A DNA stretch of 63,856 bases, the filler included, from Neolecta irregularis DAH-3 (lineage: Eukaryota), in assembly GCA_001929475.1 (NCBI GenBank). It is 6 parts of 6 records of this genome, joined end to end, with 100 filler letters (N's around TTAATTAATTAA, not from the genome) between each part and the next. Parts side by side here need not be neighbours in the genome. Positions count along the whole stretch, not along the records: positions 24,781 to 49,377 come from LXFE01000178.1; 5 more parts are not named here. One strand, written 5' to 3'. A program made the position numbers and the translations under genes. Under the pieces are notes generated by a model that was given only the letters and a program-made list of their open reading frames with translations, was not told where the DNA came from and did no database searches. This document shows positions 600 to 46,604 of this stretch, one piece after another (the stretch's first letter is position 1; every line of letters starts with the position of its first letter).

Positions 600-687
600 A
601 ACCCGAGGCGGGACTCGAACCCGCAGCCTTTGGCTTACAAAACATCTCTGTTAGGAGGCCAACACGCTACCGTTGCGCCACACGGGC
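600..687 (-). tRNA. tRNA-Arg(CCT) with 16-nt intron (636-651)
   Basis: Reverse complement folds as a cloverleaf: acceptor GCCCGTG/CTCGGGT (one mismatch), D stem GCGC/GCGT, anticodon stem TTGGC/GCCAA with CCT at 655-653, intron after position 37, T arm GCGGG-TTCGAGT-CCCGC. Confidence 0.93.
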
Positions 688-1779: not shown

Positions 1780-2610
1780 ATGATCCTCCACAATATTCAA
1801 GACCAACAAACTTTTGATTCGTTTTGCAAAGATGCAGAAAAAGGCGTTGCAGTACTCTACTTTTGGGCAGATTGGGCCGCACCATGCAAACAGATGGATC
1901 AAGTCTTTTCAGAACTCTCAGCAAAACATCCAGATATTTCTTTTGGCAGAGTACAGATCGCCCTTCATTCCTTTTTCATATCGCTATAGATTGAAGCAGA
2001 AGAGCTTGGAGATATAACCGAGAGATTCGATGTATCGGCCGTCCCATTCTTTGTCATTCTCAAGGTTTTTTGGCTGAATTCCACACTGTATAACCGTTTA
2101 GAATAACGAAAAAGTAGCTACAGTATCGGGCGTCAATCCTATAGAACTCACAGCTGCCTTGGGCAAATTTTCATCTTTATCCACCATTCCACCTGCACAA
2201 AAAGTTGATTACACATCATCCCCCGATAAAGATTTCGCACAGGGAGAAGAGGATCTAGACACTCGACTAGGAAAACTCGTAAAAGCAGCCTCTGTCATGT
2301 TATTCATGAAAGGTACCCCAGCGCAGCCTCAGTGTGGTTTCAGTCGTCAGATAATTCAGATATTACGGGACCGTGGAGTGCGTTTCGGCTTCTTCAACAT
2401 TCTCGCAGACGACGAAGTTCGCCAAGGTTTGGAGTATCAGTGGTATCCATTAACTCTGCAGGTCTTAAAGAATTTTCAGATTGGCCAACGTTCCCTCAGT
2501 TATATATCAAAGGAGAACTAGTCGGAGGTCTGGATATTGTAAAAGAAATGGTGGAAAATGGCGAGTTCGATGAACTGCTGGAGGCCGTAAATCAACCATC
2601 ACCTACATAG
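1780..2610 (+). CDS. GRX4: Monothiol glutaredoxin with N-terminal thioredoxin domain (Grx3/Grx4)
   Basis: WAAPCKQM Trx-like motif, PQCGFS active site, [17 protein letters not shown]; 3 introns. Confidence 0.95.
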
Positions 2611-2638
2611 CGAACAAATAAAAGATGCAAACGACTAG

Positions 2639-3483
2639 TTACTCCTCTCCCTCGTTTGCCGCTTCCAATAGGCTGATATCTGTATTGATATCACTAGGCA
2701 GCAATTGCGCGTCCTCGAGTGCTCTTCTGCCTTCTTCGATTTCCCCCAAACGTCTTATGACATCAATTAAGGCTCTGTCTAATTCAGTCTGACCAAGCTC
2801 GCGAGGATCGGACTCAGAGATGTCATAACGTCTAATGTAATAAATAATTCCAGCAGAGAGAGCTAGTTCCCTTGCTTTCTCTCCACTAAGCATAATGTAG
2901 TTGAGGATTTGCAAAGCCTCCGTTTCTCCACTCATGGACCGTGATACAGAGGCGGAAATATTGTCATCCAAGGCATTCAAGAGACTCGTCGTGAGAGCAA
3001 GGAGAAACGAATATGCTACAAGCTTGTATCTCACCGACGCTAAATAGTTAAGGATGTCAGATATTACGACTCACGATTGAACTGAACACAAAATAAGACC
3101 AGTTTGAGAACTTTTAGGCGCTCATTGCGATCATCTGATATCAAGGAATGTTCAAGAAGCGTCAATGACTCGGCAAGTCTATTAACGAGTATTTTTGTGG
3201 CCCTGTGAGCCGGTCATTGATGATAAAAGTACACAGTATACACGTTTGAAAGGTTGAGATTTGCACCATTGGCGAGTACCGCGAGACTTTCCAGTGACAG
3301 ATCTATGCAATCAATATAGCTCATTTCTTTTATACTTTTTTCAGCGAGAAATTTGCGCTTGCGTCTCAGGTATATTGACGATGAATAAGGGTGCGATGCT
3401 AAGAGAGACAAGTAAAAGCCTGAGCATCCCCCAACTACCAGGATAAATCCAGTGATCAGATCGAGTAGATACGACCTAAACAT
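2639..3483 (-). CDS. Hypothetical protein, N-terminal TM segment plus helical (ARM-like) body; 3 exons joining ORFs 3214-3483 and 2639-3034
   Basis: An open middle exon (ATKILVNRLAESLTLLEHSLISDDRNERLKVLKLVLF, ~3090-3205) links the two ORFs through short GT-AG introns. Confidence 0.55.
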
Positions 3484-3578
3484 GATTGTTACTATTTTAT
3501 ATTCGTATATATTTTATGGTGGTGAGGACACGCGGTTATGGTACCAGGAATTATCTTTTTTCTCGACGTTGACTTGTA

Positions 3579-4627
3579 ATGCTTCGAACAATGTACAAAT
3601 CTATTTTATGAGCTCTACTAATTCTTTTCCAGAAAACCAAAAAACGCAAGGTCTAAACGTGTGTTAGATGCGCGTGAGCCAAAACTCAAGGAAAATGCCA
3701 AAAAAGCAATTTTTGTTCGTGGATCCTCGACTTCAAACGATGTGACCCAGGCTTTAACCGATCTTGTATACTTTTTTCTATGCAAAATCCTCTTATTTAC
3801 CGCCTAGTACTCATTAAAAAAACCAGCAGCAGTTAATTTTACCAAACGCAACATGATCCGTCCTTTTGAAGATGGATCGAGCCTCGAGTTCTTTGCCCAG
3901 AAAAATGATGCCAGTTTAATTGTATTTGGATCACATTCAAAGAAACGGCCGAATAATTTGACTTGGGCTCGAATGTTTGACTATCATGTGTTGGATATGA
4001 TTGAGCTGCTTATGGTGAAATTTACATCTTTGAAGAATTTCAAGGTGGATTACTCTTTTGATTCTGGGGCTAATCATGCAGACGCCCAAGACTGCAGTCG
4101 GAATGCGACCCGTCATGCTTTTTTGCGGTCCAATATTCGAGGCTCATCCTACATTTCGTCATATTCGGTCTCTTTTTCTTGATTTTTTCCGCGGGCAAGA
4201 TGCTTCTTTGATTGATGTTGCTGGTCTTCAGCAGATGATTGTTATTTCTGCAGACGAAGCAGTAGATGGGCAGCCAATTCCTCGTGTTCATTTTCGAGTA
4301 TATTCAATTTCTACGTGCAAGAGTGGACATAAATTACCTCGGGTTGAACTTGTAGAGATGGGGCCGCGTATAGATTTCCAGGTTGGTAGAGTCCAGGAAG
4401 CTGCGGAGGATATTTTGAAAGAAGCCATGAGGAGACCCAAGCAACTGGAAATGAAGAAGAAGAAGAATGTTGATGTGGACAGTATTGGTGACAAGATTGC
4501 GAGAGTTCATACTGGAAAACAGGATTTGAGCAAGTTGCAAACGCGGAAAATGAAGGGACTGAAACGCAAAGACGAGAGTGATGAAGATGAAGATGGCAAA
4601 GATGTAAAAAGAGTGAAAATGGCGTAA
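3579..4627 (+). CDS. RPF2: Ribosome biogenesis Brix-domain protein Rpf2
   Basis: MLRTIKPKNARSKR start, GSHSKKRPNNL, LPRVELVEMGPRIDF, KLQTRKMKGLK; 3 introns. Confidence 0.96.
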
Positions 4628-4762: not shown

Positions 4763-5734
4763 TTACGATGAAACAGTCCTATTCTCAATCAAACGAAGCT
4801 GGTTTCTGCACAACATTGCGATTGTCACCTTTCCAATCGACGGAACATAAATGGACGCCCGTTCCTGGACGTCATCTTGGAAATTTTTGTACGACGAGAA
4901 GCAGATGCAGACTGCACCATCGCGAATCAAGTTTGTAGGAAACTTGTACGCTGGGTTAGGGACTCCGGTGATAATGACATCGCATTTTGGAGCAATTTCA
5001 GAAAGCGGATTGCTGATGTCTGTTACATGATGACAACGCAGTTTTATTCCTGCGCCTCGGGTAAACAGCTGCATTCCGCTCAGATCCAGGCTGTAAACTG
5101 TTGCGCCATCGTTTGCCAATAAAGCAGCCAACGGACGGCCAACGACTTCTGATCTGTTTACGACGAGAACAGTTTTGCCATAGAGGCGATTGCCGTGGTG
5201 GAGCAGTGGATGGTAGATTTGCAGATATTCGAGCACTTTGACGATTCCCAGCGGCGTACACGGCAGGATGCTCTTTTTTTTCTGGTTCTGGTCGAGGAAC
5301 CGGATATTGTGGTACATGTTGTACAGATCCAGATGGGATAATCCCTCAACGTCTTTTTCAGGAGAAAGACAATTCAGCAGATACTGGTCCTGCTTGTTTC
5401 CATGCACCGGCATGTATATCATAATTCCATCTACCGTCTCGTCGCTGTTGAGCTGCGTGATCGTGTCCTCGATCTCATCCTTGTCCTCAACAACACGCAA
5501 ATCAAAGCAGAATCCAATCTCTTGCGCAGTCTTCGCCGTCCAGTCTGCGTATTTCTTGGCCGCTGGATCATTATTCGCGAGTAGACCAACAAGGCGAGGA
5601 GGCACAGGCAGAGCAGCCGCCCGCACGGCCAGATCGTGTAAATAGTGCTTTGCGATTGCACACGCAAGTATTTTTCCTGGATTATTAAAAATGTTCAAGA
5701 GGATTTAAAGGATACGGCAGGCGTGTTCAGCCAT
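4763..5734 (-). CDS. MTD1: NAD-dependent methylenetetrahydrofolate dehydrogenase
   Basis: KDVEGL, SILPCTPL, VVNRSEVVGRPLAALLANDGATVYS, PSIGKVTIAML; start MAEHAC followed by one intron. Confidence 0.93.
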
Positions 5735-7154: not shown

Positions 7155-10100
7155 ATGGACGAAATTGCGGCGGCTCTGTATTCCGCACGCGCAGACGGAC
7201 CAGCGCAGGAACTCGCAGAACACAGCAGGCAGATCGCTGCAGGTTGCATAATTATGGCATTTTACCTGATGCGACAGAAATTTCAGCTGGAAAAAATACT
7301 TTGTTTCAGCTGGTAGAGCGCATTGGTTGCGAATGTTTGGCTGCCTCAGATATTTCAATTAAAGCGCGCGGTACTTCTTTTTTGGGGGGTTATGCGAGAC
7401 TGAAATTGCAGGAGTTTTGCTGCTCGGTGCAGTTTTGAATCGTTTGCCTCAAACATTGCTCGTTCCTTCGCAGATTTCTGCTGTAGTGCAATTTCTGTGT
7501 GCATATCTAGACGATGTGCGAGAAAATAAAGACTCTGACATGCACCCCGCGCTATATTCGCTGTGTTCGATATCGCAGATGTCTGCACTCACCGCCGCAG
7601 ATGTATCGCTGATCTGCAATTCGTATGTTGTCGTTATAGCTCGACTAATACGATAAAGCATCTTTGCAATTGGCGATTTGCACCACCAGCCGCAGCGCGT
7701 TCGTTTCCTCGTTTATTCACTGCTCCACCATATTCTCGCCAATCATCGCAAAGGCATAGCATCTGCATTTGAAGCTCATCTTTCAGGAGCATTTTCAACC
7801 GGCGGCGAGTTTATTTCAGGATTCGCTGCAATCGTCGATGGCGAAAAGGATCCGCGAAATCTCATGCTCGCCTTTTCCATCTTGAAAGTCATTTTGGCAG
7901 AATTTGATATTTCAAAACATCTCACCGTACTTTTTTTTCCAATTCATCTAATCAAGAGTCGCTTTTCGACATCGTAGTCTGCTATTTTCCCATCACTTTT
8001 CGTCCTCCCCCAGACAATCCATACGGTATAACCGCCAATGATCTCAAACAACGCCTCAGGTATTCTCAACTGCTGTCTTTCTGATATCAGAGAATGTATT
8101 GCTGCAACTCCCCTTTTTGCTCCGGAAGCAATTCCCATGCTGCTCGACAAACTAAACTCGCCAACCTTGTCAGCAAAGGTATTCACCCCCTACTTTCTTA
8201 CCATAACTCATAGATCGATGTACTCGAGACTCTTGCTCTCTGCTGCAAGATATTTGGCCCCCGTGAAATTGTCGTTTTTATCACCCAAATCTGGGACTCT
8301 GTCAAATTCGAAATACTCCAACCAGGAGAAGAACAACTCGTCTCTAACGCACTCTTAGTCATTATCTCCGCCATCAAAACTCTCTCCCGCGGTCTCGACA
8401 ATCCTCTTCCAAATACTCCTCTCTCAAGATTCCTCAAAATCGTCTTTCACGAATGCCATTCTCAAATCACAGATTCAAAGGCCTTGCGAGCTGCTGGACG
8501 TATACTCGGCTCAACCTCACAAGCATCTCGACCTTCAAACATTTCAACTCTGCAGGAAATGCTTCCGTTCGTCTTGCAGTCCCTGAAAGAAACCGAACAA
8601 GTTTCAAACCAGATTGCATTACTAGACATTTGCTACGAAATCCTTTTCGGTTCTGCACTCCTCTATCCTCGCAGCTTGATCCGTGTCTCTGCACAGAAAG
8701 AGGACGAAATGATGACTGGAGACGACAATATATTTGAACGAAATGACGATATATTCGAAATGACACAGAAAGACGACATCCTAGGCATCCTCGCACAATT
8801 CCTCTCAAGTAGTGATTGTCATGTAAAAACAGTTTCCTTGCGCTGCTTATCAAAACTCTGTGATATCAGCGGCCTGCTCGATGATTCTCAAGTATCCCAG
8901 ATTATCCAATACTTTAATACAATTGCCCTGCAAGACGAAAATCTCGATCTGAGGTACCTCTTAACATTTTCTTGAATAACATCTCCAGTCAGGAAGCTTT
9001 ACTATCCCTCGCAAATATCTCAGTCTATAGAAGCCAACTCATCATTGAAAGCTCTTTTCCAGAATTCTTGTCCCGTCTTCCCTTACTGCCCACAAACGAC
9101 GAATATAAAAGAGTATTGAGCGCTCTGAGTCAACTTTCAAAATCTGCACCTATAATAGAATGCCTATTTATTCGTCTGACAGCAAAAGTGGATGAGCTCG
9201 TTAGGAACGGCCTAGGAAATTACCTCACTGCAGTCTTCGCTACAATTCTTGCTGTCGTGCAACAATGGTATGAATCCAATCCATCCATGAGAATTCCCCT
9301 TGCAGACCGGTTGTTGGCGCAAATCATGACAATATCTACTCAGCACACCTCGTCATATATTTTGCAACCCCAAATTCTCAAGATTGCCGCACAAATCGTC
9401 AATATAATCATCAGAAACGACAATGAGACTCTTCAGTTGAAACATGCTGTAAACCTTTTCTCACTATTTGTTACATACGACAAATCAATATGGTCAAGTG
9501 AATCAATAGAATTTGCTCCCATGACCCCCGACGCTTCATTGGATCAGATAAAAACACTTTCTATCTTTATCTATGGCTTTGCCGCTCTCAAACGCAGTGC
9601 AAGTTTACTTTTTAATCCTAAATTAACGACTAGACACCCCTTCCTGAAAACATTAATCTACAGTTATTCGCTTCAAATCTTGTGGCTAGAGTCGCTGATC
9701 CTATCCCTGATGAATCAACAGTCCAGTTCAATTTAATATTAGCTTGTCTTTTCAATAAATATTTCAGCGACGACGAAATCAATTGTATTATACGCCCAGA
9801 AATTGAAAAATTAAAAACAATGTTGGATTCTACAGAGATTGCTTCTAGAGCATTACATTTATTACTCAACGTAATTTTCTTTTTCTCTACGCTGACTGCA
9901 GATTGCAAAACCATTGCTGTTGAGGACACACAAGACCGCGTTCGAAATAATCGAGATAGTCATCGCGAGATTGGCAGATTCTATCATGGGCCACCAAGCT
10001 GCAGCTGGATTTGCCTTACTTTCTCAAGATCACGAAATTCTGAATCCTACAAACCACGCAGTCATTCGCATCCTACACAAACAGCGATTCTTTGTATTTT

Positions 10101-25059: not shown

Positions 25060-27605
<2,546 letters not shown>

Positions 27606-27777: not shown

Positions 27778-28351
27778 CTAAATGTCATCTAGAGAATCAA
27801 AATAGCACAAAAACAGACATACCAATTTCGCCAACATCGTCGCCAAATTCGAAATTGGCATCTGCTTCTTCTTCATTGCCAAAGGTGTCGCCTTCGTTGA
27901 TTTTAGCAGAATCTGGGAGTTCACCGTATGCTTTGAGGCTTCGAGCTTCGTCTGGAGTGTATTTCAGTAAAACATCTGCTTTTTCGTCTTCGAATTCTCT
28001 GAGTGAGAGCAGGACAATATCGCCCTGATTGATCCAGACCTGGAGAGTCAGTAATTGAATAGCAGCTCAAGTGCTTTTTTGCGCATTTTACCACGGATAT
28101 GGGCAAGACGAGTAACACCGTCAAAGCAAGCAGCAGTTACTCTTCCGTTTCCTAGCATTTTTAGGACCTGTGCGTATTCTGGAGGTGAGAAACAATATTC
28201 AAAAGGAGATTTATGCCTTGGCCGTCTTCTTTAAAGACAAGTTCGCGCTTTTGATCTTCTGCTTCGTTTTTTCCTCGTCGCCTGTTTTTACCTGGATATT
28301 TAACAGATGTTGAAAGGATGAAATACCTCCTTTTCCCTTGTTCTTGGGCAT
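27778..28351 (-). CDS. TIF11: Translation initiation factor eIF1A
   Basis: [54 protein letters not shown]; 4 introns, two GC-AG. Confidence 0.97.
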
Positions 28352-28487: not shown

Positions 28488-29548
28488 ATGACCAACTACT
28501 ATGAGCAGACACAATCGCAAGCACCGCCCTATGAACATTTGGTTCATCCTGTGCCTCAACATATTGCTCGACCAATGCAACAGTATGGGTCGCAGCAGCA
28601 GCAGCAGCAATTCTCCCAACCACAAAATTCGCAGCAACAACAGTATTCGCAACAACAACAATATCCGCAACATGCGCAATATTTGACCCATCCACTCACC
28701 TCCATATTTGCAGTACCAGATGGCACGGCGCAGGTCGGACTGCATATGGGCCGCACTGCCGTTGCGCAAGGAGCCAACTATGTAGCGCGCTATGTCGATG
28801 TTGCTGCGCTCAAACACTATTTCAACGTGTCAAACTACTTTGTCCTGCACAAATTGCGACTGGTGCTATTTCCCTGGAGACACTCGCCTTGGTCGCGTCT
28901 CGTTTCGAGATCTGCTATGAATCCGTCTGCAGATCTCTATAAACCACCGCGAGATGATCTCAATTCGCCCGACATGTATATTCCGGTCATGGCATTCGTC
29001 ACGTACATTCTCCTCGCCGGTGTCATGGCTGGAATCAGAGGCGATTTTCGTCCAGAACTGCTCGGAATCACTGCGAGTTTTGCGTTTGCCGTGGTGTTGA
29101 TCGAGTTTCTCGTAGTAAAACTCGGCTGTTACCTGCTAAACATCACCAGCGAATCGCAGTACCTCGACCTCATTGCGTACAGCGGCTACAAATTCGTCGG
29201 GTGTGTTTTTGTTCTTTTGTCCGTTCTAAACTCCAGAATCATCGCCACAATGATTTCCCAGTTCGCTTTTGCAGATAAGAGCTGGCTTCCGTGGCTCGTT
29301 TTCTTCTATACATACGCAGCAAATGGCTTCTTTCTCGTATGTCTTTGAATTATCATGCTGATTATCAGCTCCGCAGTCTCAAATATGTAGTCCTCCCAGA
29401 AACATCTGGGTCTGCTACAACTACGGCGACTGTTACTTCTGCTCAGCGCACTCGCCGCATCCATTTCCTTGCAATCATCTCTGTCGGCCAGATTATCGCC
29501 ATGTGGTTCAGTGTTCCGGATGGACCATGGATTTTATCCCGTCCATGA
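28488..29548 (+). CDS. YIF1: ER-Golgi transport protein Yif1/Hrf1; last residues derived from a transposon
   Basis: LKHYFNVSNYFVLHKLRLVLFPWRH, PPRDDLNSPDMYIPVMAFVTY, DLIAYSGYKFVG, FFL/LRSLKY. Confidence 0.93.
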
Positions 29549-30487
29549 AAAGTTGAACTTTATCCATGGATTTTTAGTCCATGGACTGGACTAGGGAAAA
29601 AGCCTGGTCCATCCGGTCCATGGACTGGATGGACCGTATCACGTGATATTTGATTGTAGGGATTTACCTCGTCAAACAATGAATTTTCATTTCACGCACT
29701 CCAACTCCCACGCCCGCTGCAGCGCCCTCACCTGCTCCAGCGCCCTCACCTGCTCCAACTCCCTGGCCCGCTGCACTGCTCCCACCCACTCCAGCACCTT
29801 TGCCAGCTCCAGCACTCTCACCCACTCCAACTCCCTGGCCCGATCCAGTGCCCTTACCCGCTCCACTGCCCTTACCCGCTCCAACACTCTCGCCCGCTCC
29901 AGCGCCCTCGCCAGTTGCAGAACCCCCGCCTGCTGACGCCCTCTCTGGCTGCAACTCCCTCACCCCTGCCGCTGAAACTCCGATTCCCGCAAACTCAGTC
30001 AACCTGTTGAGTAAGTTAAATCAAAAGCCGGTGCAAGTTGCTTGATACATGTAGCTTTCACATGTTGTCTAAGAGACTTGGTTGTGTTGGGAATATCTAT
30101 TAGGTATTTCAGACATCATTGTTTGGTTGTTTCTGACGTATGATTTCTATTTTATGTGACATGTATAAACAAAGTCAGTCTCTCCCACCTCCCGCATCTC
30201 GCCTTTCCTGTCCCACCCGACCTTCCAGTCCCGCCCACCTTTCCAGTTCCACCGTGCTTCCTCTGCAGTCCCGCCATGCCCGTCCCTCCCTCCTCACCCA
30301 TCCCACGCATCCCTCCTGCCTCGCTTATTCCGCCCTTGCCCATCCCGCGAGTCCCTGTCCGCCTATGCCTCCTCTCCCATCCTGCCTGACTCTCCCATCC
30401 CGCCCGTGCTGCCTGTCCCTGTCCAACCCATGCCTCCTCTCCCATCCTGCCTGACTCTCCCATCCTGCCAGACTCTCAGGAACACTG
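29509..30487. mobile_element. Non-autonomous hAT element (979 bp) with 8-bp TSD ATGTGGTT
   Basis: TIRs CAGTGTTCC/GGAACACTG; TSD at 29501-29508 and 30488-30495; TCCATGGA subterminal repeats; internal ~18-bp C-rich tandem repeats. Confidence 0.92.
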
Positions 30488-33303: not shown

Positions 33304-34931
33304 ATGGATGATCCAGCCGCCCTCCCGCTCGCGCTGACCCCCGCAGAGACCGTCGATCCGCACAACCCCGCCTCGCTCGAGCTGCTCGCTGCCCCAATGT
33401 CGCCCAAAGTCGCGCCAACCGCCTCTAGCAGATCATCGCCCGCGCCGGCGCCCCCGATGCTGGTCGTCTGTGCGGCATCATCGTCAGCTCCCTCGATGAG
33501 AAAGACGGCAAAGACGGCGACGATCTCGACCTCCTGGAAAAGAAACTCCAATCCGCAAACTTGTCTGAGCAAGGCAGGCTGCCCTCGCCCTTTAGCACTA
33601 ACTTCTAGCCTCAAAAGTCGCAAGCCGCGAATTGGGCCCGTCTCAAAAGAATGCATCCTACACAACCCGAGTACATTGTTTGCATAACTTACCTCGAAAC
33701 GCTCTCAGAGATTAACACCACCGCATCCGACAATCTCGACCTTTCTACAGTCTCCCGCGAACAACTCGACGCAGATCACTACGGTTTAGAAAACGTCAAG
33801 AAACGCCTACTTGAATATCTCGCTGTTCTACGACTCAAAAAAGCTACAAACTCAAATTCCGTCGACAAAGCTCCCATCTTGCTCCTCGTCGGCCCCCCAG
33901 GCACCGGGAAACCCAGTCTTGCCAAGAGTATTGCAAAAAGCATTGGCCGCAAGTTTTTAAGAATCAGCCTTGGTGGCGTCCGCGACGAGGCAGAAATCAG
34001 AGGCCATCGAAGAACATACGTTGGCGCCATGCCAGGAGTCATCCTCCAAGGTTTACGAAAAATACAAGTTTGCAACCCTGTTTGCTTCTGGACGAGGCAC
34101 AATCATCTCTCTTTGAGTCTGACTTTACAGGTTGACAAACTCTCCGCTAACAATTTCCACGGAGATCCTTCGGCTGCAATGCTCAAAGTCTTTGACCCCG
34201 AACAAAACTTTTCCTTTTCAGATCAGTACATCAACATTCCTGTGGATTTATCCCGCGTCCTCTTCATCGCCACCGCTAATTCGCTCGATACTATTTCGGG
34301 ACCTTTATTAGATCGAATGGAAGTAATTCACCTATCCGACTACACATACCACGAAAAACTCCATATCGCTAAACAACACCTCGTCTCTAAACAGGTAAAA
34401 GAAAATGGACTAGCAAAGTTATCCATCGAGGATGATGCGCTGATAAAAATCGCCACAGGGTATACCCACGAAGCCGGTGTTCGGAGTCTTAACGACAATT
34501 TGCGGCAGTATGTCGATATATAGCAGTCGAATCAACTGAAAATCCAAATGCCTCATAAACATCTATCACCGTCGACGATATCCCAAAAATCCTCGGAATC
34601 GAGAAATATACACTTGAAATCACAGAACGGAGTAATCGGCCTGGAGTCGTTACTGGTCTTGCTTACATGGCTCCCGGTACAGGAGGAATTCTCTTCATTG
34701 AACCCACTTCCATGCCTGGTTCCGGAGTCCTCCCAATGCCCGGAAATCTCGGAAATGTCATCGAAGAATCGCCTCTGTGCGCTTTCTTGGCTTAAATTCC
34801 ACGCTTTTCAACTTCATTTGACGGCTTTACCTTCTGGCAAATGCATCGTTTGGCGGGGGACAGGCATACGCTACGGACATCCTACTAGCTCAAAGTGCCT
34901 TCTACGGTCAACATTTTGGTGCAGCATTTGA
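33304..34931 (+). pseudogene. Lon protease (peroxisomal Lon2-like) pseudogene
   Basis: [33 protein letters not shown] present, but Walker A reads GKPS, Walker B (LLLDE) is frameshifted near 34080, further frameshifts near 33635 and 34490, and the N- and C-termini are truncated. Confidence 0.85.
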
Positions 34932-42561: not shown

Positions 42562-42865
42562 CCACCTCATGTTGGACATTATTAATTAACATTTCGTGGA
42601 ATGCTCTTCTTTTTTCGTATCAATATTTCCTTTGGGGTTCAGGAGAAGGGGTGCATATGTCAATGCAATAAAATATCGGGCATTATTGGTCTAGCAAAGG
42701 AAACGTACTGAAGTAGTATTTCATTGTTCAACAAGTGTAACAGACTCGATGAAATCTCCCGTTGAACATCTGAAACAAATTTCAGTCGAATGTGGGAACT
42801 TCTTTACAGTATGGCCAACCACCAACCACCGGGTTATTTCGAGTTGGGGCTTTCCTTGACAAAAC

Positions 42866-43030
42866 CCGTCTGTGCGGATATACCGGGTGCCGCCTGGATG
42901 GATCTGAATAAGTGCATCTTGGCCGACTGCAATTGTAGGTGTTGATGAGAAAAAACAGGTATCAGTTACTTCTTCCACTGTCTCTCCAATGGATAAAATC
43001 AATGTTCCATTGGAGAACGAGAGAATGTCA
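42866..43030 (-). pseudogene. Isolated fragment of RSE1/SF3B3 (U2 snRNP SF3b130)
   Basis: [51 protein letters not shown] matches the central propeller of SF3B3, with a small deletion and substitutions. Confidence 0.8.
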
Positions 43031-43169
43031 AAAAACCCAGTTCTCAAACATCCTTATCATTATCATCAACGACGAAAGAATAACCTACTTCTCCATTATC
43101 TCGAACAGTGCTGATTTGCGGGGTTTGTGGTCCATACAGCTGTAGGTCGTTTTTGTACTGAAAGTTTTG

Positions 43170-43295
43170 TACAATTCCTCCTTATAACGAACCCAACTAC
43201 CCTCCAAAATTGTATTGTGCATCATGATAGAAAATCTGCCTTATAACAAATTCAGCATCCTTGAACGTCACATTCGTTATAAGCAGGTTCGACTG
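43170..43295 (+). mobile_element. Terminal fragment of the pogo-like element
   Basis: ATTCGTTATAAGCAGGTTCGACTG|TA is the reverse complement of the 5945 terminus; similarity extends ~70 bp. Confidence 0.8.
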
Positions 43296-43585
43296 TAGCT
43301 AAAAAAGTGACAGAGCTGAAAAAAGAATTCGCGGTTGGGACATGTGAAACTGACTCGTAAATTTTGCAGCAATTAGAGAATTTCTACCACTTGCTTTTCC
43401 CAGACTTGTCGGCTATTACCACCATTCTCCAAATCAGGTACATCATTTTAATTTTCCCTTGCTCGATCAATGATGCCTGCATAATAGATGTTAGACTACT
43501 GATTACTCATGTTGATCAATATTTCATGCCTGAGACCTCGAATATATATCTTCTTCTATGAAAATGAATAAGCACTAATTCTTAG

Positions 43586-45301
43586 ATGTGTGGAATATTA
43601 GGGGTTTGCCTGACCGATTCAGCTGAATGTGCGAGTCCACTTCTTGCTGAAGGGCTAACGGTTCTTCAACATCGCGGTCAGGGACAATTTCTTACCAAGG
43701 GTGTCCTAATATTTAGGATGCTGCGGGAATAGTAACGTGCGGACCCCATGGGAAACTGTATCAGCGTAAAGGAAACGGAATGGTCAGCGATGTATTTAGA
43801 GATGAAACTTTGCTGATGGGTTTGTTGGGCTGTATGGGAATTAGTCATGGTACACTCTGAAATTTTCTTCATAGTATTGATTTCAGTGCGATATCCAACA
43901 GCAGGAAGCTCCGCAAATGCGGAAGCTCAGCCGTTTTATGTTAATGCGCCGTATGGGATTAGTCTTGCTCATGTATCTCTTTCATAATTAATTTACTCTG
44001 ACAATGCAGAACGGAAACTTGGTTAATGCGCCCACCTTGAAAAGGTTCCTTGACGCAGTTGAACACAGACATATAAATACAGACTCCGATTCCGAGCTCT
44101 TACTCAACATCTTCGCTGCAGCCCTTCAGAAAACAGGGAAATCGAGAACAAACGCAGATGATCTATTCACCGCTTGTAAAAGCATCTACACCCAATGTGT
44201 CGGAGCGTATGCCTGCGTGGCTATGATCGCAGGGTTTGGCATAATCGCGTTCCGGGATCCTCATGGCATCCGTCCTCTAGTGTATGGTCGAAAGAAGTCA
44301 AGGACAGGAGGTTATGACTATGCTTTTGCTAGTGAAAGTGTTGCATTGAATTTCCTTGGCTTTGACGAATTCTGGGACGTGTTACCTGGACAAGCTGTCC
44401 TTGTACAAAGGAAGAACCAGGACGAGCAAAAAGATCCTATCATCAGACAAGTCTATCCCGCGCTAGCTTATGCTCCGGATATCTTCGAGTACGTCTATTT
44501 CGCTAGACCAGACTCTGTTATGGATGGGATTAATGTTCATCATTCAAGGCTAGCCATGGGCGTTTCTCTTGGAAAATCTGTTGTTCAAAAGTTGGAGAGC
44601 ATGGGATTGAGTAGGGACGATGTCGATGTTGTTATTCCAGTTCCTGACACCAGTCGAAACTCGGCATTGAAATTGGCTAATGAATTTGGATGGACTTATT
44701 CCGAGGGATTCGTCAAGAACCGTTATATCTTCAGAACATTCATTATGCGCGAGCAGAGCACAAGGTTACAATCAGTAAAATGAACACGTTAACATTTAGA
44801 ATTAAAAGCGTACGAAGAAAGCTAAGTCCCATGCCATCCGAATTCGCAAACAAAAACGTTCTTATCGTCGACGACTCAATAGTACGAGGAACAACATCGC
44901 GAGAAATAGTACGAATGGCCCGAGAAGCAGGAGCTGCAAAAGTCTATTTCGCAAGTGCGGCCCCACCTGTTCGTTACCGTCATATTTATGGCATCGACCT
45001 TGCAGATGATCGCGAACTTGTTGCATTCGGTAAATCGGAATATGAGGTTGCTGATATTATTGAAGCGGATGCCGTTATTTACCAATCCTTGCCGAATCTT
45101 GTAGAAGCTTGTCGAAGCATAAATCCTAACATCAAAGAATTTGAGGATGGTGTATTCTCTGGAAAATATATCACAGAAGTGCCGAAAGGATATTTCGGAC
45201 ATCTAGAAGAAGTGCGTGAATTCAATGCTCATCAAAAGGCCATTGGAGTTGAATTTCATGCACCAGATGATATTGCACTTTATAACTACAGGGGGTGTTA
45301 A
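43586..45301 (+). CDS. ADE4: Amidophosphoribosyltransferase
   Basis: MCGILG start, [39 protein letters not shown]; first CDS intron has a GG donor. Confidence 0.96.
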
Positions 45302-45370
45302 TGTATTGGTAGTATTTAATTTAGATGACAGTATATATGGAGTTTTCGAGCATTGCATATCATCGAGATT

Positions 45371-46604
45371 TTATATTGTGACCGTCTCGAAAAGGTCATT
45401 GCCTCCGTCTTCCCCTGTCTCTGTTGGACTAGGTAGCTTGCAGATTGATGAATCCTCTTGCGCAGTTTCAATTGTCCTTCCTTCGGGTGATGTTTCCTCA
45501 GGGAGAGATACTTCTGAGTTTTCAGACTTTGTAATTTCCGAATTGTTTTGTTCTGCATATGGACTTTGTTTACTTGGTTCGGCGGGTTCCTCGTAGATTG
45601 GTGCTTGCTGATAAGGATGCACTGTTCGAGATAATGGAGAAGTAGGTTCTTCTTTCGTCGCTGATGATAATGATAAGGATGTTTGAGAACTACGTTTTTT
45701 TGAATTATACGATTGGCTAGTTGGGCCGACAGATTGTCTTCGCAAAGCAGGATCAGCACCCAGATAGTATCTTGCCTTTAGTAATTCATCTACAATAGGT
45801 TAATATACCCTTTCACTCCGACTATGCGTCCTTCTTGAGCACATGCTTCAATCCAGTCAACTGTAACACTCGGTATACTCTTTTGCTCAGCCTTCTTCCA
45901 TTCTTCGCCTCTTCCAACTGCACAAACAAAATGAGTTGTATCGATCTGAACAGTCTCCTGGATGGGTAATCGTGCACCAATATTGATAACTGCTGCTTGC
46001 AAGCGCTTCTCCTCGGACTCGGGTAATTCCCCTTTACAAATCGTAATTCCAGAGAGATCAGTCATTTTATGGGTATGAACGGTCAGCGGAGGCGAACTAA
46101 AAGTTCCACCGGTGGTAGAAAGGACTAGATGAAACGAGTAAATAGTATCGAGTTGAAGACCGCTAAGTTTGGTAACTGTTTGATTCATCGGATCAGGAAT
46201 CTTTCCCAAACGATGTCCATTCTTCCATAAACTCAAGTCTTTGAAGGTGCATGAAGCAAGTTCTAAAGGATCCCATTCCAATACTATGCTCGTTTGTGTG
46301 GCGTTACGAAGACGAAGTACTGGGGGAGATGGAGATGTGGATCCGTACTTTTGGAGTATCTGAGCTTGCAACAAGTTGAATTTCTCAATTTCTTCCTTCT
46401 CAGCCTGATGGTCCTGACAAACAGTAATGTTGATTATGCTTCCTGCTGTAACTGCTTTGGGGAGAAGTATTGATGGAAACTCGATTTGATGATGATCAGA
46501 AGTCAAAAGGACGGCCTGCAGAAATAGTATTAGCTTTCTTCTCTGATGATTGAATGAACCATCCCAGCGTCAAGCTTTCCTACTGTGAGTTGCTGTCCTC
46601 CCAT
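45371..46604 (-). CDS. CHS5: Exomer subunit Chs5/Cfr1 (FN3 + BRCT)
   Basis: TVGKLDAGM/AVLLT, IEFPSILLP, LRNATQTSIVLEWDPL, THKMTDLSGIT, IDTTHFVC; acidic tail. Confidence 0.94.

Follow-up and report, generated by a model that had tools for sequence, protein, structure and literature searches.

The gene for amidophosphoribosyltransferase (ADE4/PurF type) in Neolecta irregularis DAH-3 very probably contains a genuine, constitutively removed U2-type intron of 35 nt that begins with GG and ends with AG. It occupies positions 43682–43716 of the window, by which we mean the whole 63,856-nucleotide stretch of DNA that was analysed. The initial annotation, made from the sequence alone, had offered two readings of this segment, a true GG-AG intron or a T>G base error or mutation. 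The first of these is now supported by a G at 43683 in the contigs of one public sequencing run, by a skip over the segment in the contigs of another and by the identity of the spliced product with a public protein. Few signals in eukaryotic genes are as conserved as the GT at the start of introns, and it is rare for a housekeeping gene to use GG efficiently and constitutively in its place. We regard the finding as sound and of modest weight; it gains interest only if Neolecta reads the second intron position (+2) loosely across its genome.

Reading frame and gene structure of ADE4

ADE4 lies on the plus strand and opens with an ATG at 43586, giving the N-terminus MCGILG. Exon 1 (43586–43681) holds 32 codons, from MCGILG to LQHRGQ, and ends with CAG at 43679–43681. 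Between codons 32 and 33, in phase 0, stands the segment 43682–43716, which reads GGACAATTTCTTACCAAGGGTGTCCTAATATTTAG (GGACAA...CTAAT...TTTAG) and is followed by GATGCTGCGGGA, encoding DAAG. If exon 1 is read through unspliced, a stop codon is reached at 43730–43732.

Stop-free, frame-restoring removals around this site were enumerated, and just one of the 1124, that of 43682–43716, produces the motif QHRGQDAAG. The earlier claim that the motif requires removal of a 35-nt segment with a GG donor therefore holds, and the removal restores the frame in the way expected of a U2-type GG-AG intron. Because AGG is repeated at both ends, the removal can also be shifted to 43680–43714, 43681–43715 or 43683–43717; the registers AG..TT, GG..TA and GA..GG give the same spliced sequence as GG..AG and are indistinguishable from it by sequence. 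Judged by their letters, these other registers would break more splice rules than GG..AG does. In the register 43682–43716 the segment has G at +1 and AG at its 3' end, and the G at +2 (position 43683, in the window as well as in contig 4 of run X1, described below) makes it neither a canonical GT-AG nor a GC-AG intron.

Introns with more usual donors were also considered. The in-frame GT-AG options, at 43661–43716 (56 nt), 43677–43732 (56 nt) and 43701–43732 (32 nt), delete or replace conserved residues. The same is true of the GC-AG removals, none of which yields QHRGQDAAG. When paired with the AG at 43716, GT 43701 would give an 'intron' of 16 nt, and GT 43677 would give one of 40 nt with a frameshift. 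The initial annotation had set aside the nearby GT donors for giving frameshifts, stops or a 16-nt intron, and its observation is confirmed.

The pattern HRGQDA[AC]G is present in 99 of the 120 best homologues. The other 21 are public models whose start lies downstream of both the motif and the catalytic Cys, for example at MARDVF, a pattern which suggests that annotation often overlooks the short 5' exons of ADE4.

Once 43681 is joined to 43717 and three more short segments, all GT-AG, are taken out, an open frame of 523 codons results. Exon 2 (43717–43849) and exon 3 (43887–43972), placed from the spliced frame together with the X2 contig described below, are separated by intron 2 (43850–43886, 37 nt, GTACAC..CAG). 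Intron 3 (43973–44009, 37 nt, GTATCT..CTGAC..CAG) leads to exon 4 (44010–44764), which carries the glutamine amidotransferase domain (Pfam GATase_7/GATase_6). Intron 4 (44765–44799, 35 nt, GTTACA..TTAAC..TAG) leads to exon 5 (44800–45301), which carries the phosphoribosyltransferase domain (Pfam) and ends with the stop codon TAA. Upstream, an intron of 148 nt in the 5' leader (43438–43585, GTACAT..CACTAAT..TAG) abuts the ATG and is four times the length of the coding introns. All of these introns are on the plus strand.

The spliced product contains both the catalytic N-terminal Cys and the QHRGQDAAG motif. It is identical over 523/523 residues to OLL26475.1 (Amidophosphoribosyltransferase, Neolecta irregularis DAH-3), which confirms that the rest of the gene is intact, as had been stated, and means that the public annotation already removes 43682–43716. 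According to the supplement of PMC5309816, Neolecta gene models were guided by transcripts (Trinity, PASA, MAKER), and N. irregularis introns average 42 bp, with 4.3 per gene. In the main text of that paper the words 'intron' and 'splice' have 0 occurrences, as has 'canonical' in its supplement 1. Titles and abstract openings in the Neolecta literature on introns and splice sites point to no paper about non-canonical splice sites.

Relatives of the gene were also sought. A protein of JGI source (P0121, 347 aa, from a contig of 2291 nt) is identical to Neolecta ADE4 at 313/347 residues and runs seamlessly across the intron-4 junction; this similarity points to a close relative of N. irregularis in an environmental data set. 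A metagenome scan for relatives gave only loci of 48–53% identity (L001 and L002). The 48-aa read-through ORF of exon 1, used as a query for the unspliced ORF of a relative, returned no candidate.

Several features surround the gene. An 82-nt inverted repeat, 95% complementary, flanks the whole of ADE4, with arms at 43030–43111 and 45619–45700. The right arm falls within an ORF that forms the C-terminal tail of a minus-strand CHS5-like gene, whose Pfam domains CHS5_N, fn3_2 and BRCT lie at 45790–46569. On the other side, an isolated minus-strand ORF of 110 aa (42721–43053) matches only positions 37–103 of the second beta-propeller of the RSE1/DDB1/CPSF1 family (E 2.2e-07). It is probably a gene fragment, because the interval between the SAP-domain gene and ADE4 is too short for the remainder of such a gene.

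Base 43683 and splicing in public sequencing runs

Only two public runs contain the stretch, X1 from sample S1 and X2 from sample S2, and the record type of both, 'DNA?', is a guess. The runs were compared with the window over 43000–45600 in the form of Logan contigs, which drop rare variants.

Contig 4 of X1 (2479 nt, word depth 437.8) spans 43170–45600 with 0 other letters and 0 gaps. At 43683 it reads G, and the run has no variant row and no alternative contig at that base. The initial annotation had named a T at 43683 in the genomic reads as the observation that would overturn a GG donor; the contig instead gives G at the depth just mentioned, at a level of comparison where a minority T may be hidden. 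X1 may itself be the source of the assembly; its G would then come from a second assembly of those reads and would not be evidence independent of the window.

Next to this, a stretch of ~125 nt in the transcribed region upstream of ADE4 (43173–43298) has a word depth of 2570–4090 in X1, against 438 in adjacent sequence, and both runs have many loose ends at its borders, 43173 and 43297. The stretch is a dispersed repeat that is present in many copies and has short terminal inverted repeats.

Contig 9 of X2 (3270 nt, depth 129.4) equals the window except for six skipped segments. One of its pieces, 43584–43679, is joined directly to 43715 (contig positions 510 to 511), so that 35 nt are skipped and 3 letters fit both sides; given these 3 ambiguous letters, the cut equals 43682–43716. 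The same contig skips the four plus-strand GT..AG segments of 148, 37, 37 and 35 nt, that is, the leader intron and introns 2, 3 and 4. The remaining skip, at 43350–43387 (38 nt, CT..AC), corresponds to a minus-strand GTAGAA...CAG intron and indicates a spliced antisense or divergent transcript that overlaps the ADE4 leader and was merged into one contig.

The X2 pieces have 0 other letters relative to the window over about 2.2 kb, leader and 3' flank included. Six skipped intron-like segments in sequence that otherwise matches the genome, flanks included, are most simply explained if X2 is cDNA. The GG-AG segment is thus exactly absent, with its exons joined, from sequence that we infer to be RNA-derived. 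The depth of X2 is 105.6 in the bin 43609–43695 and 101.1 in the bin 43696–43782. Both values are the contribution of contig 9 alone, so there is no contig with the intron retained, and the interior of 43682–43716 is covered by no X2 contig. Retention of the intron in transcripts had been the other observation proposed as a refutation; what is seen is a cDNA-like contig that skips the 35 nt. The leader intron is the only ADE4 intron with a trace of cover in X2 (1.49, bin 43435–43521).

Two explanations that leave the spliceosome aside can be discarded. Ribosomal hopping over the 35 nt is ruled out because the segment is already absent at the RNA level in the X2 contig, and conversion of the donor to GU by G-to-U RNA editing is ruled out because we know of no editing system of that kind.

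It is very improbable that the 35-nt gap in X2 is an artefact, whether from template switching by reverse transcriptase at the AGG repeat or from an error of assembly. Such an origin is suggested by the 3-nt direct repeat AGG that the junction carries, and false non-canonical junctions are known to arise by template switching, as passages of PMC4176328 and PMC7072748 describe. On the other hand, the gap is the only form found in X2, where no retained form was seen, and it restores both the conserved motif and the frame exactly. The AG|G at its two ends is the usual splice-site consensus, and the segment between them has a donor context of the local consensus, a branch box and the modal length. 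Left unspliced, an otherwise intact ADE4 would moreover be a null allele.

A different concern is that the G at 43683 might be private to the DNA specimen, as a recent T>G change, an allele of a heterokaryon or a consensus error, while the RNA came from an allele with GT. The DNA and RNA runs do come from different samples (S1 and S2), the absence of an intron-containing contig from X2 means that the donor in the RNA sample could in principle be GT, and a minority or heterozygous T at 43683 could escape contigs, which hide minor variants. GG-AG introns are also very rare elsewhere, at 0.0217% in Ganoderma (Table 1 of PMC11590231), and such rarity favours a private T>G change. Against these points, a plain base-call error is very unlikely given a G at word depth 437.8 in X1 with no alternative contig or variant row. 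The agreement between X2 and the window over about 2.2 kb implies that the two samples are nearly identical, so that a difference placed just at +2 would be improbable a priori. An ADE4 that could not be spliced would have a broken catalytic N-terminal region, which would be an unlikely state in a wild fruiting body, and the rest of the GG donor is of above-average quality (see below). Taken together, a change private to the specimen appears quite unlikely.

Splicing signals and recognition of the GG donor

For a local background, introns were predicted in the window with our own ab initio splice-aware gene finder, trained on the window itself; its output is noisy and provides only a rough background of 120–135 introns. 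Its flaws include overlapping models on both strands and, for ADE4, a model that started at 43780, ran past the stop codon and missed the GG intron. The intron was still not recovered when donors were relaxed. That setting proposed two other GG candidates, neither of them convincing: 5336–5368 lacks a branch box and sits where the models conflict, and 29529–29722 is 194 nt long. Gene finders that demand GT or GC would lose the catalytic N-terminus of ADE4, as the start of our own model at 43780 illustrates. The window contains 460 N in total, with a gap from 24681.

Apart from +2, the ADE4 segment looks like an ordinary intron of this population. Among the 135 predicted introns, 129 are 29–47 nt long, and the mode is 35 nt (26/135), the length of the segment. 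In the 121 introns used for training, donors follow a weak GTAY consensus, with A at +3 in 81/121, T or C at +4 in 64/121 and 31/121, respectively, and G at +5 in 36/121. The initial annotation had described GTACAA donors as common in the window, and this stands only in part: GTACA begins just 7 of the 120 predicted GT introns. The RNA-supported GT introns of ADE4 start with GTACAT, GTACAC, GTATCT and GTTACA.

When scored without +1 and +2, the GG donor reaches 2.45, which is the 83rd percentile of the 120 predicted GT introns, and just 1.1% of all 6512 GT sites score at least as high. Its context, CAG|GGAC, has the complete exon-end and +3/+4 consensus; a MAG exon end is found in 19/120 predicted GT introns and the full MAG|..AY context in 10/120. 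The acceptor region is average (56th percentile). A branch-site-like CTAAT at 43706–43710 fits the YTRAY box, and its putative branch A at 43709 is 7 nt from the intron end, within the 6–8 nt found in 44 of the 84 predicted introns that bear such a motif. The branch site had been called normal, and in both motif and distance it is so. Setting +2 aside, the GG intron ranks above the average of the local population, in keeping with compensation for the unusual base.

Deviation at +2 is not confined to ADE4 in these predictions, where 8 of the 135 introns are GC-AG. Five predicted GC-AG introns of 34–38 nt have plausible branch boxes, at 9599–9633 and 33574–33608 on the plus strand and at 28179–28216, 28040–28074 and 26811–26844 on the minus strand. 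The frequency of GC-AG suggests that +2 is under weak constraint in Neolecta, with G as a rare extreme of the tolerance.

The GG donor might also be reached indirectly. U1 could dock first on the GT at 43677 (GCG|GTCAGG), with the cut then made at GG, a variant of the splicing mechanism that we consider unlikely. The GT at 43677–43678 lies 5 nt upstream of the GG and has a G at its +5, and PMC4176328 describes a comparable case, the GA donor of the FGFR genes, which depends on a canonical GT 6 nt upstream. Yet the GT at 43677 scores –3.92 on the local donor matrix, where the GG site reaches 2.45. Donors in this genome show no preference for G at +5, as the count given above indicates, and X2 contains no product of GT 43677. 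A search of the whole window with Rfam at gathering scores returned one tRNA gene only (600–687, minus strand) and no U1, U6 or other snRNA.

Removal by another machinery, either non-spliceosomal (of the Ire1/HAC1 type or by a tRNA-type endonuclease) or the minor U12 spliceosome, is extremely improbable; the non-GT start is the sole point that speaks for it. The predicted fold of 43662–43736 has a minimum free energy of –17 kcal/mol (z = –1.07), and 32 of 200 shuffled sequences fold as well. In that fold no twin stem-loops are seen at the cut sites of 43682–43716, and the stem-loops or bulge-helix-bulge of Ire1-cut and tRNA-type introns are thus lacking. U12-type introns have the donor box [AG]TATCCTT and the branch box TCCTTAAC. 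The donor GGACAATT and the branch motif CTAAT match neither, no TCCTTAAC is present, and the intron is accordingly not of U12 type by its boxes. The neighbouring introns of similar size, skipped in the same X2 contig, are all GT-AG, which also counts against a separate route.

Removal by the major spliceosome would then proceed by intron definition, as for the neighbouring introns of 31–45 nt. The missing U at +2 may be offset by a donor that is otherwise unusually complete (CAG|G.AC), by the modal length of 35 nt and by a CTAAT box at the usual distance from a YAG acceptor. Recognition would depend on the exon end CAG|G and the A at +3 together with the branch box and the AG acceptor. The G retained at +1 and the AG at the 3' end should still permit both catalytic steps. 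In budding yeast reporters, it is chiefly the later steps of splicing that suffer from mutations at +2; efficient use of GG in ADE4 would accordingly hint at some tolerance in the active site.

A broader proposal is that the Neolecta spliceosome is generally loose at the second intron base, and perhaps at the second-to-last, and recognizes introns mainly by their fixed length of 31–45 nt, by the branch box and by AG|G at the exon end. C at +2 would then be common, and G at +2 workable in a constitutive intron of a housekeeping gene. We offer this tentatively, as a possibility that is on balance doubtful. If it is true, the ADE4 intron would be a GG-AG substrate that occurs naturally and is spliced efficiently, and Neolecta would be a fungal counterpart of the tunicates and copepods with relaxed donors. 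A clean natural case with four GT-AG neighbours in the same transcript as internal controls is a possible substrate for testing how the U at +2 can be compensated.

Comparison with known non-canonical introns

The ADE4 intron is a documented addition to a known rare class, implicit until now in the public gene model, and a single case does not establish a genome-wide habit. In the curated annotation of Ganoderma lingzhi, Table 1 of PMC11590231 lists 20 GG-AG introns among about 92,000 (the 0.0217% cited above), together with 1706 GC-AG and 35 GA-AG introns. A testis-specific GG-AG site is described for human CPSF3 in PMC4176328. The ADE4 intron resembles these cases in having G at +1 and +2, AG at the 3' end, U2-like surroundings and transcript support. 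It differs from known GG-AG cases in being only 35 nt long, in interrupting a housekeeping gene within its first 100 nt, and in belonging to a host with unusually degenerate donors. It also appears to occur in one constitutive form only, with neither a retained nor an alternative contig, whereas the CPSF3 site is a tissue-specific alternative.

Across 130 fungal annotations, Table 1 of PMC7072748 gives GT-AG at 98.715%, GC-AG at 1.009%, AT-AC at 0.019% and others at 0.257%; the main text of that paper makes no mention of GG-AG. GC-AG introns share with the ADE4 intron a deviation at +2 only and an otherwise good donor context, but their C at +2 is a common tolerated variant and the G of ADE4 is far rarer. 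GA-AG introns are reported, in passages of PMC7072748 and PMC4176328, from FGFR genes, Eurytemora affinis and Oikopleura dioica. The GA-AG donors of Eurytemora and Oikopleura, as given in PMC7072748, have the AG|G.A context that is also found in the ADE4 intron. They differ in having A at +2 and in forming a genome-wide class in these animals, possibly with a variant U1, whereas the Neolecta GG is one documented case.

A further comparison is with the ordinary mini-introns of Neolecta. In length, branch box, acceptor and phase the ADE4 intron matches them, and it differs by a G in place of T at +2; a single transcript has it spliced out along with its four GT-AG neighbours.
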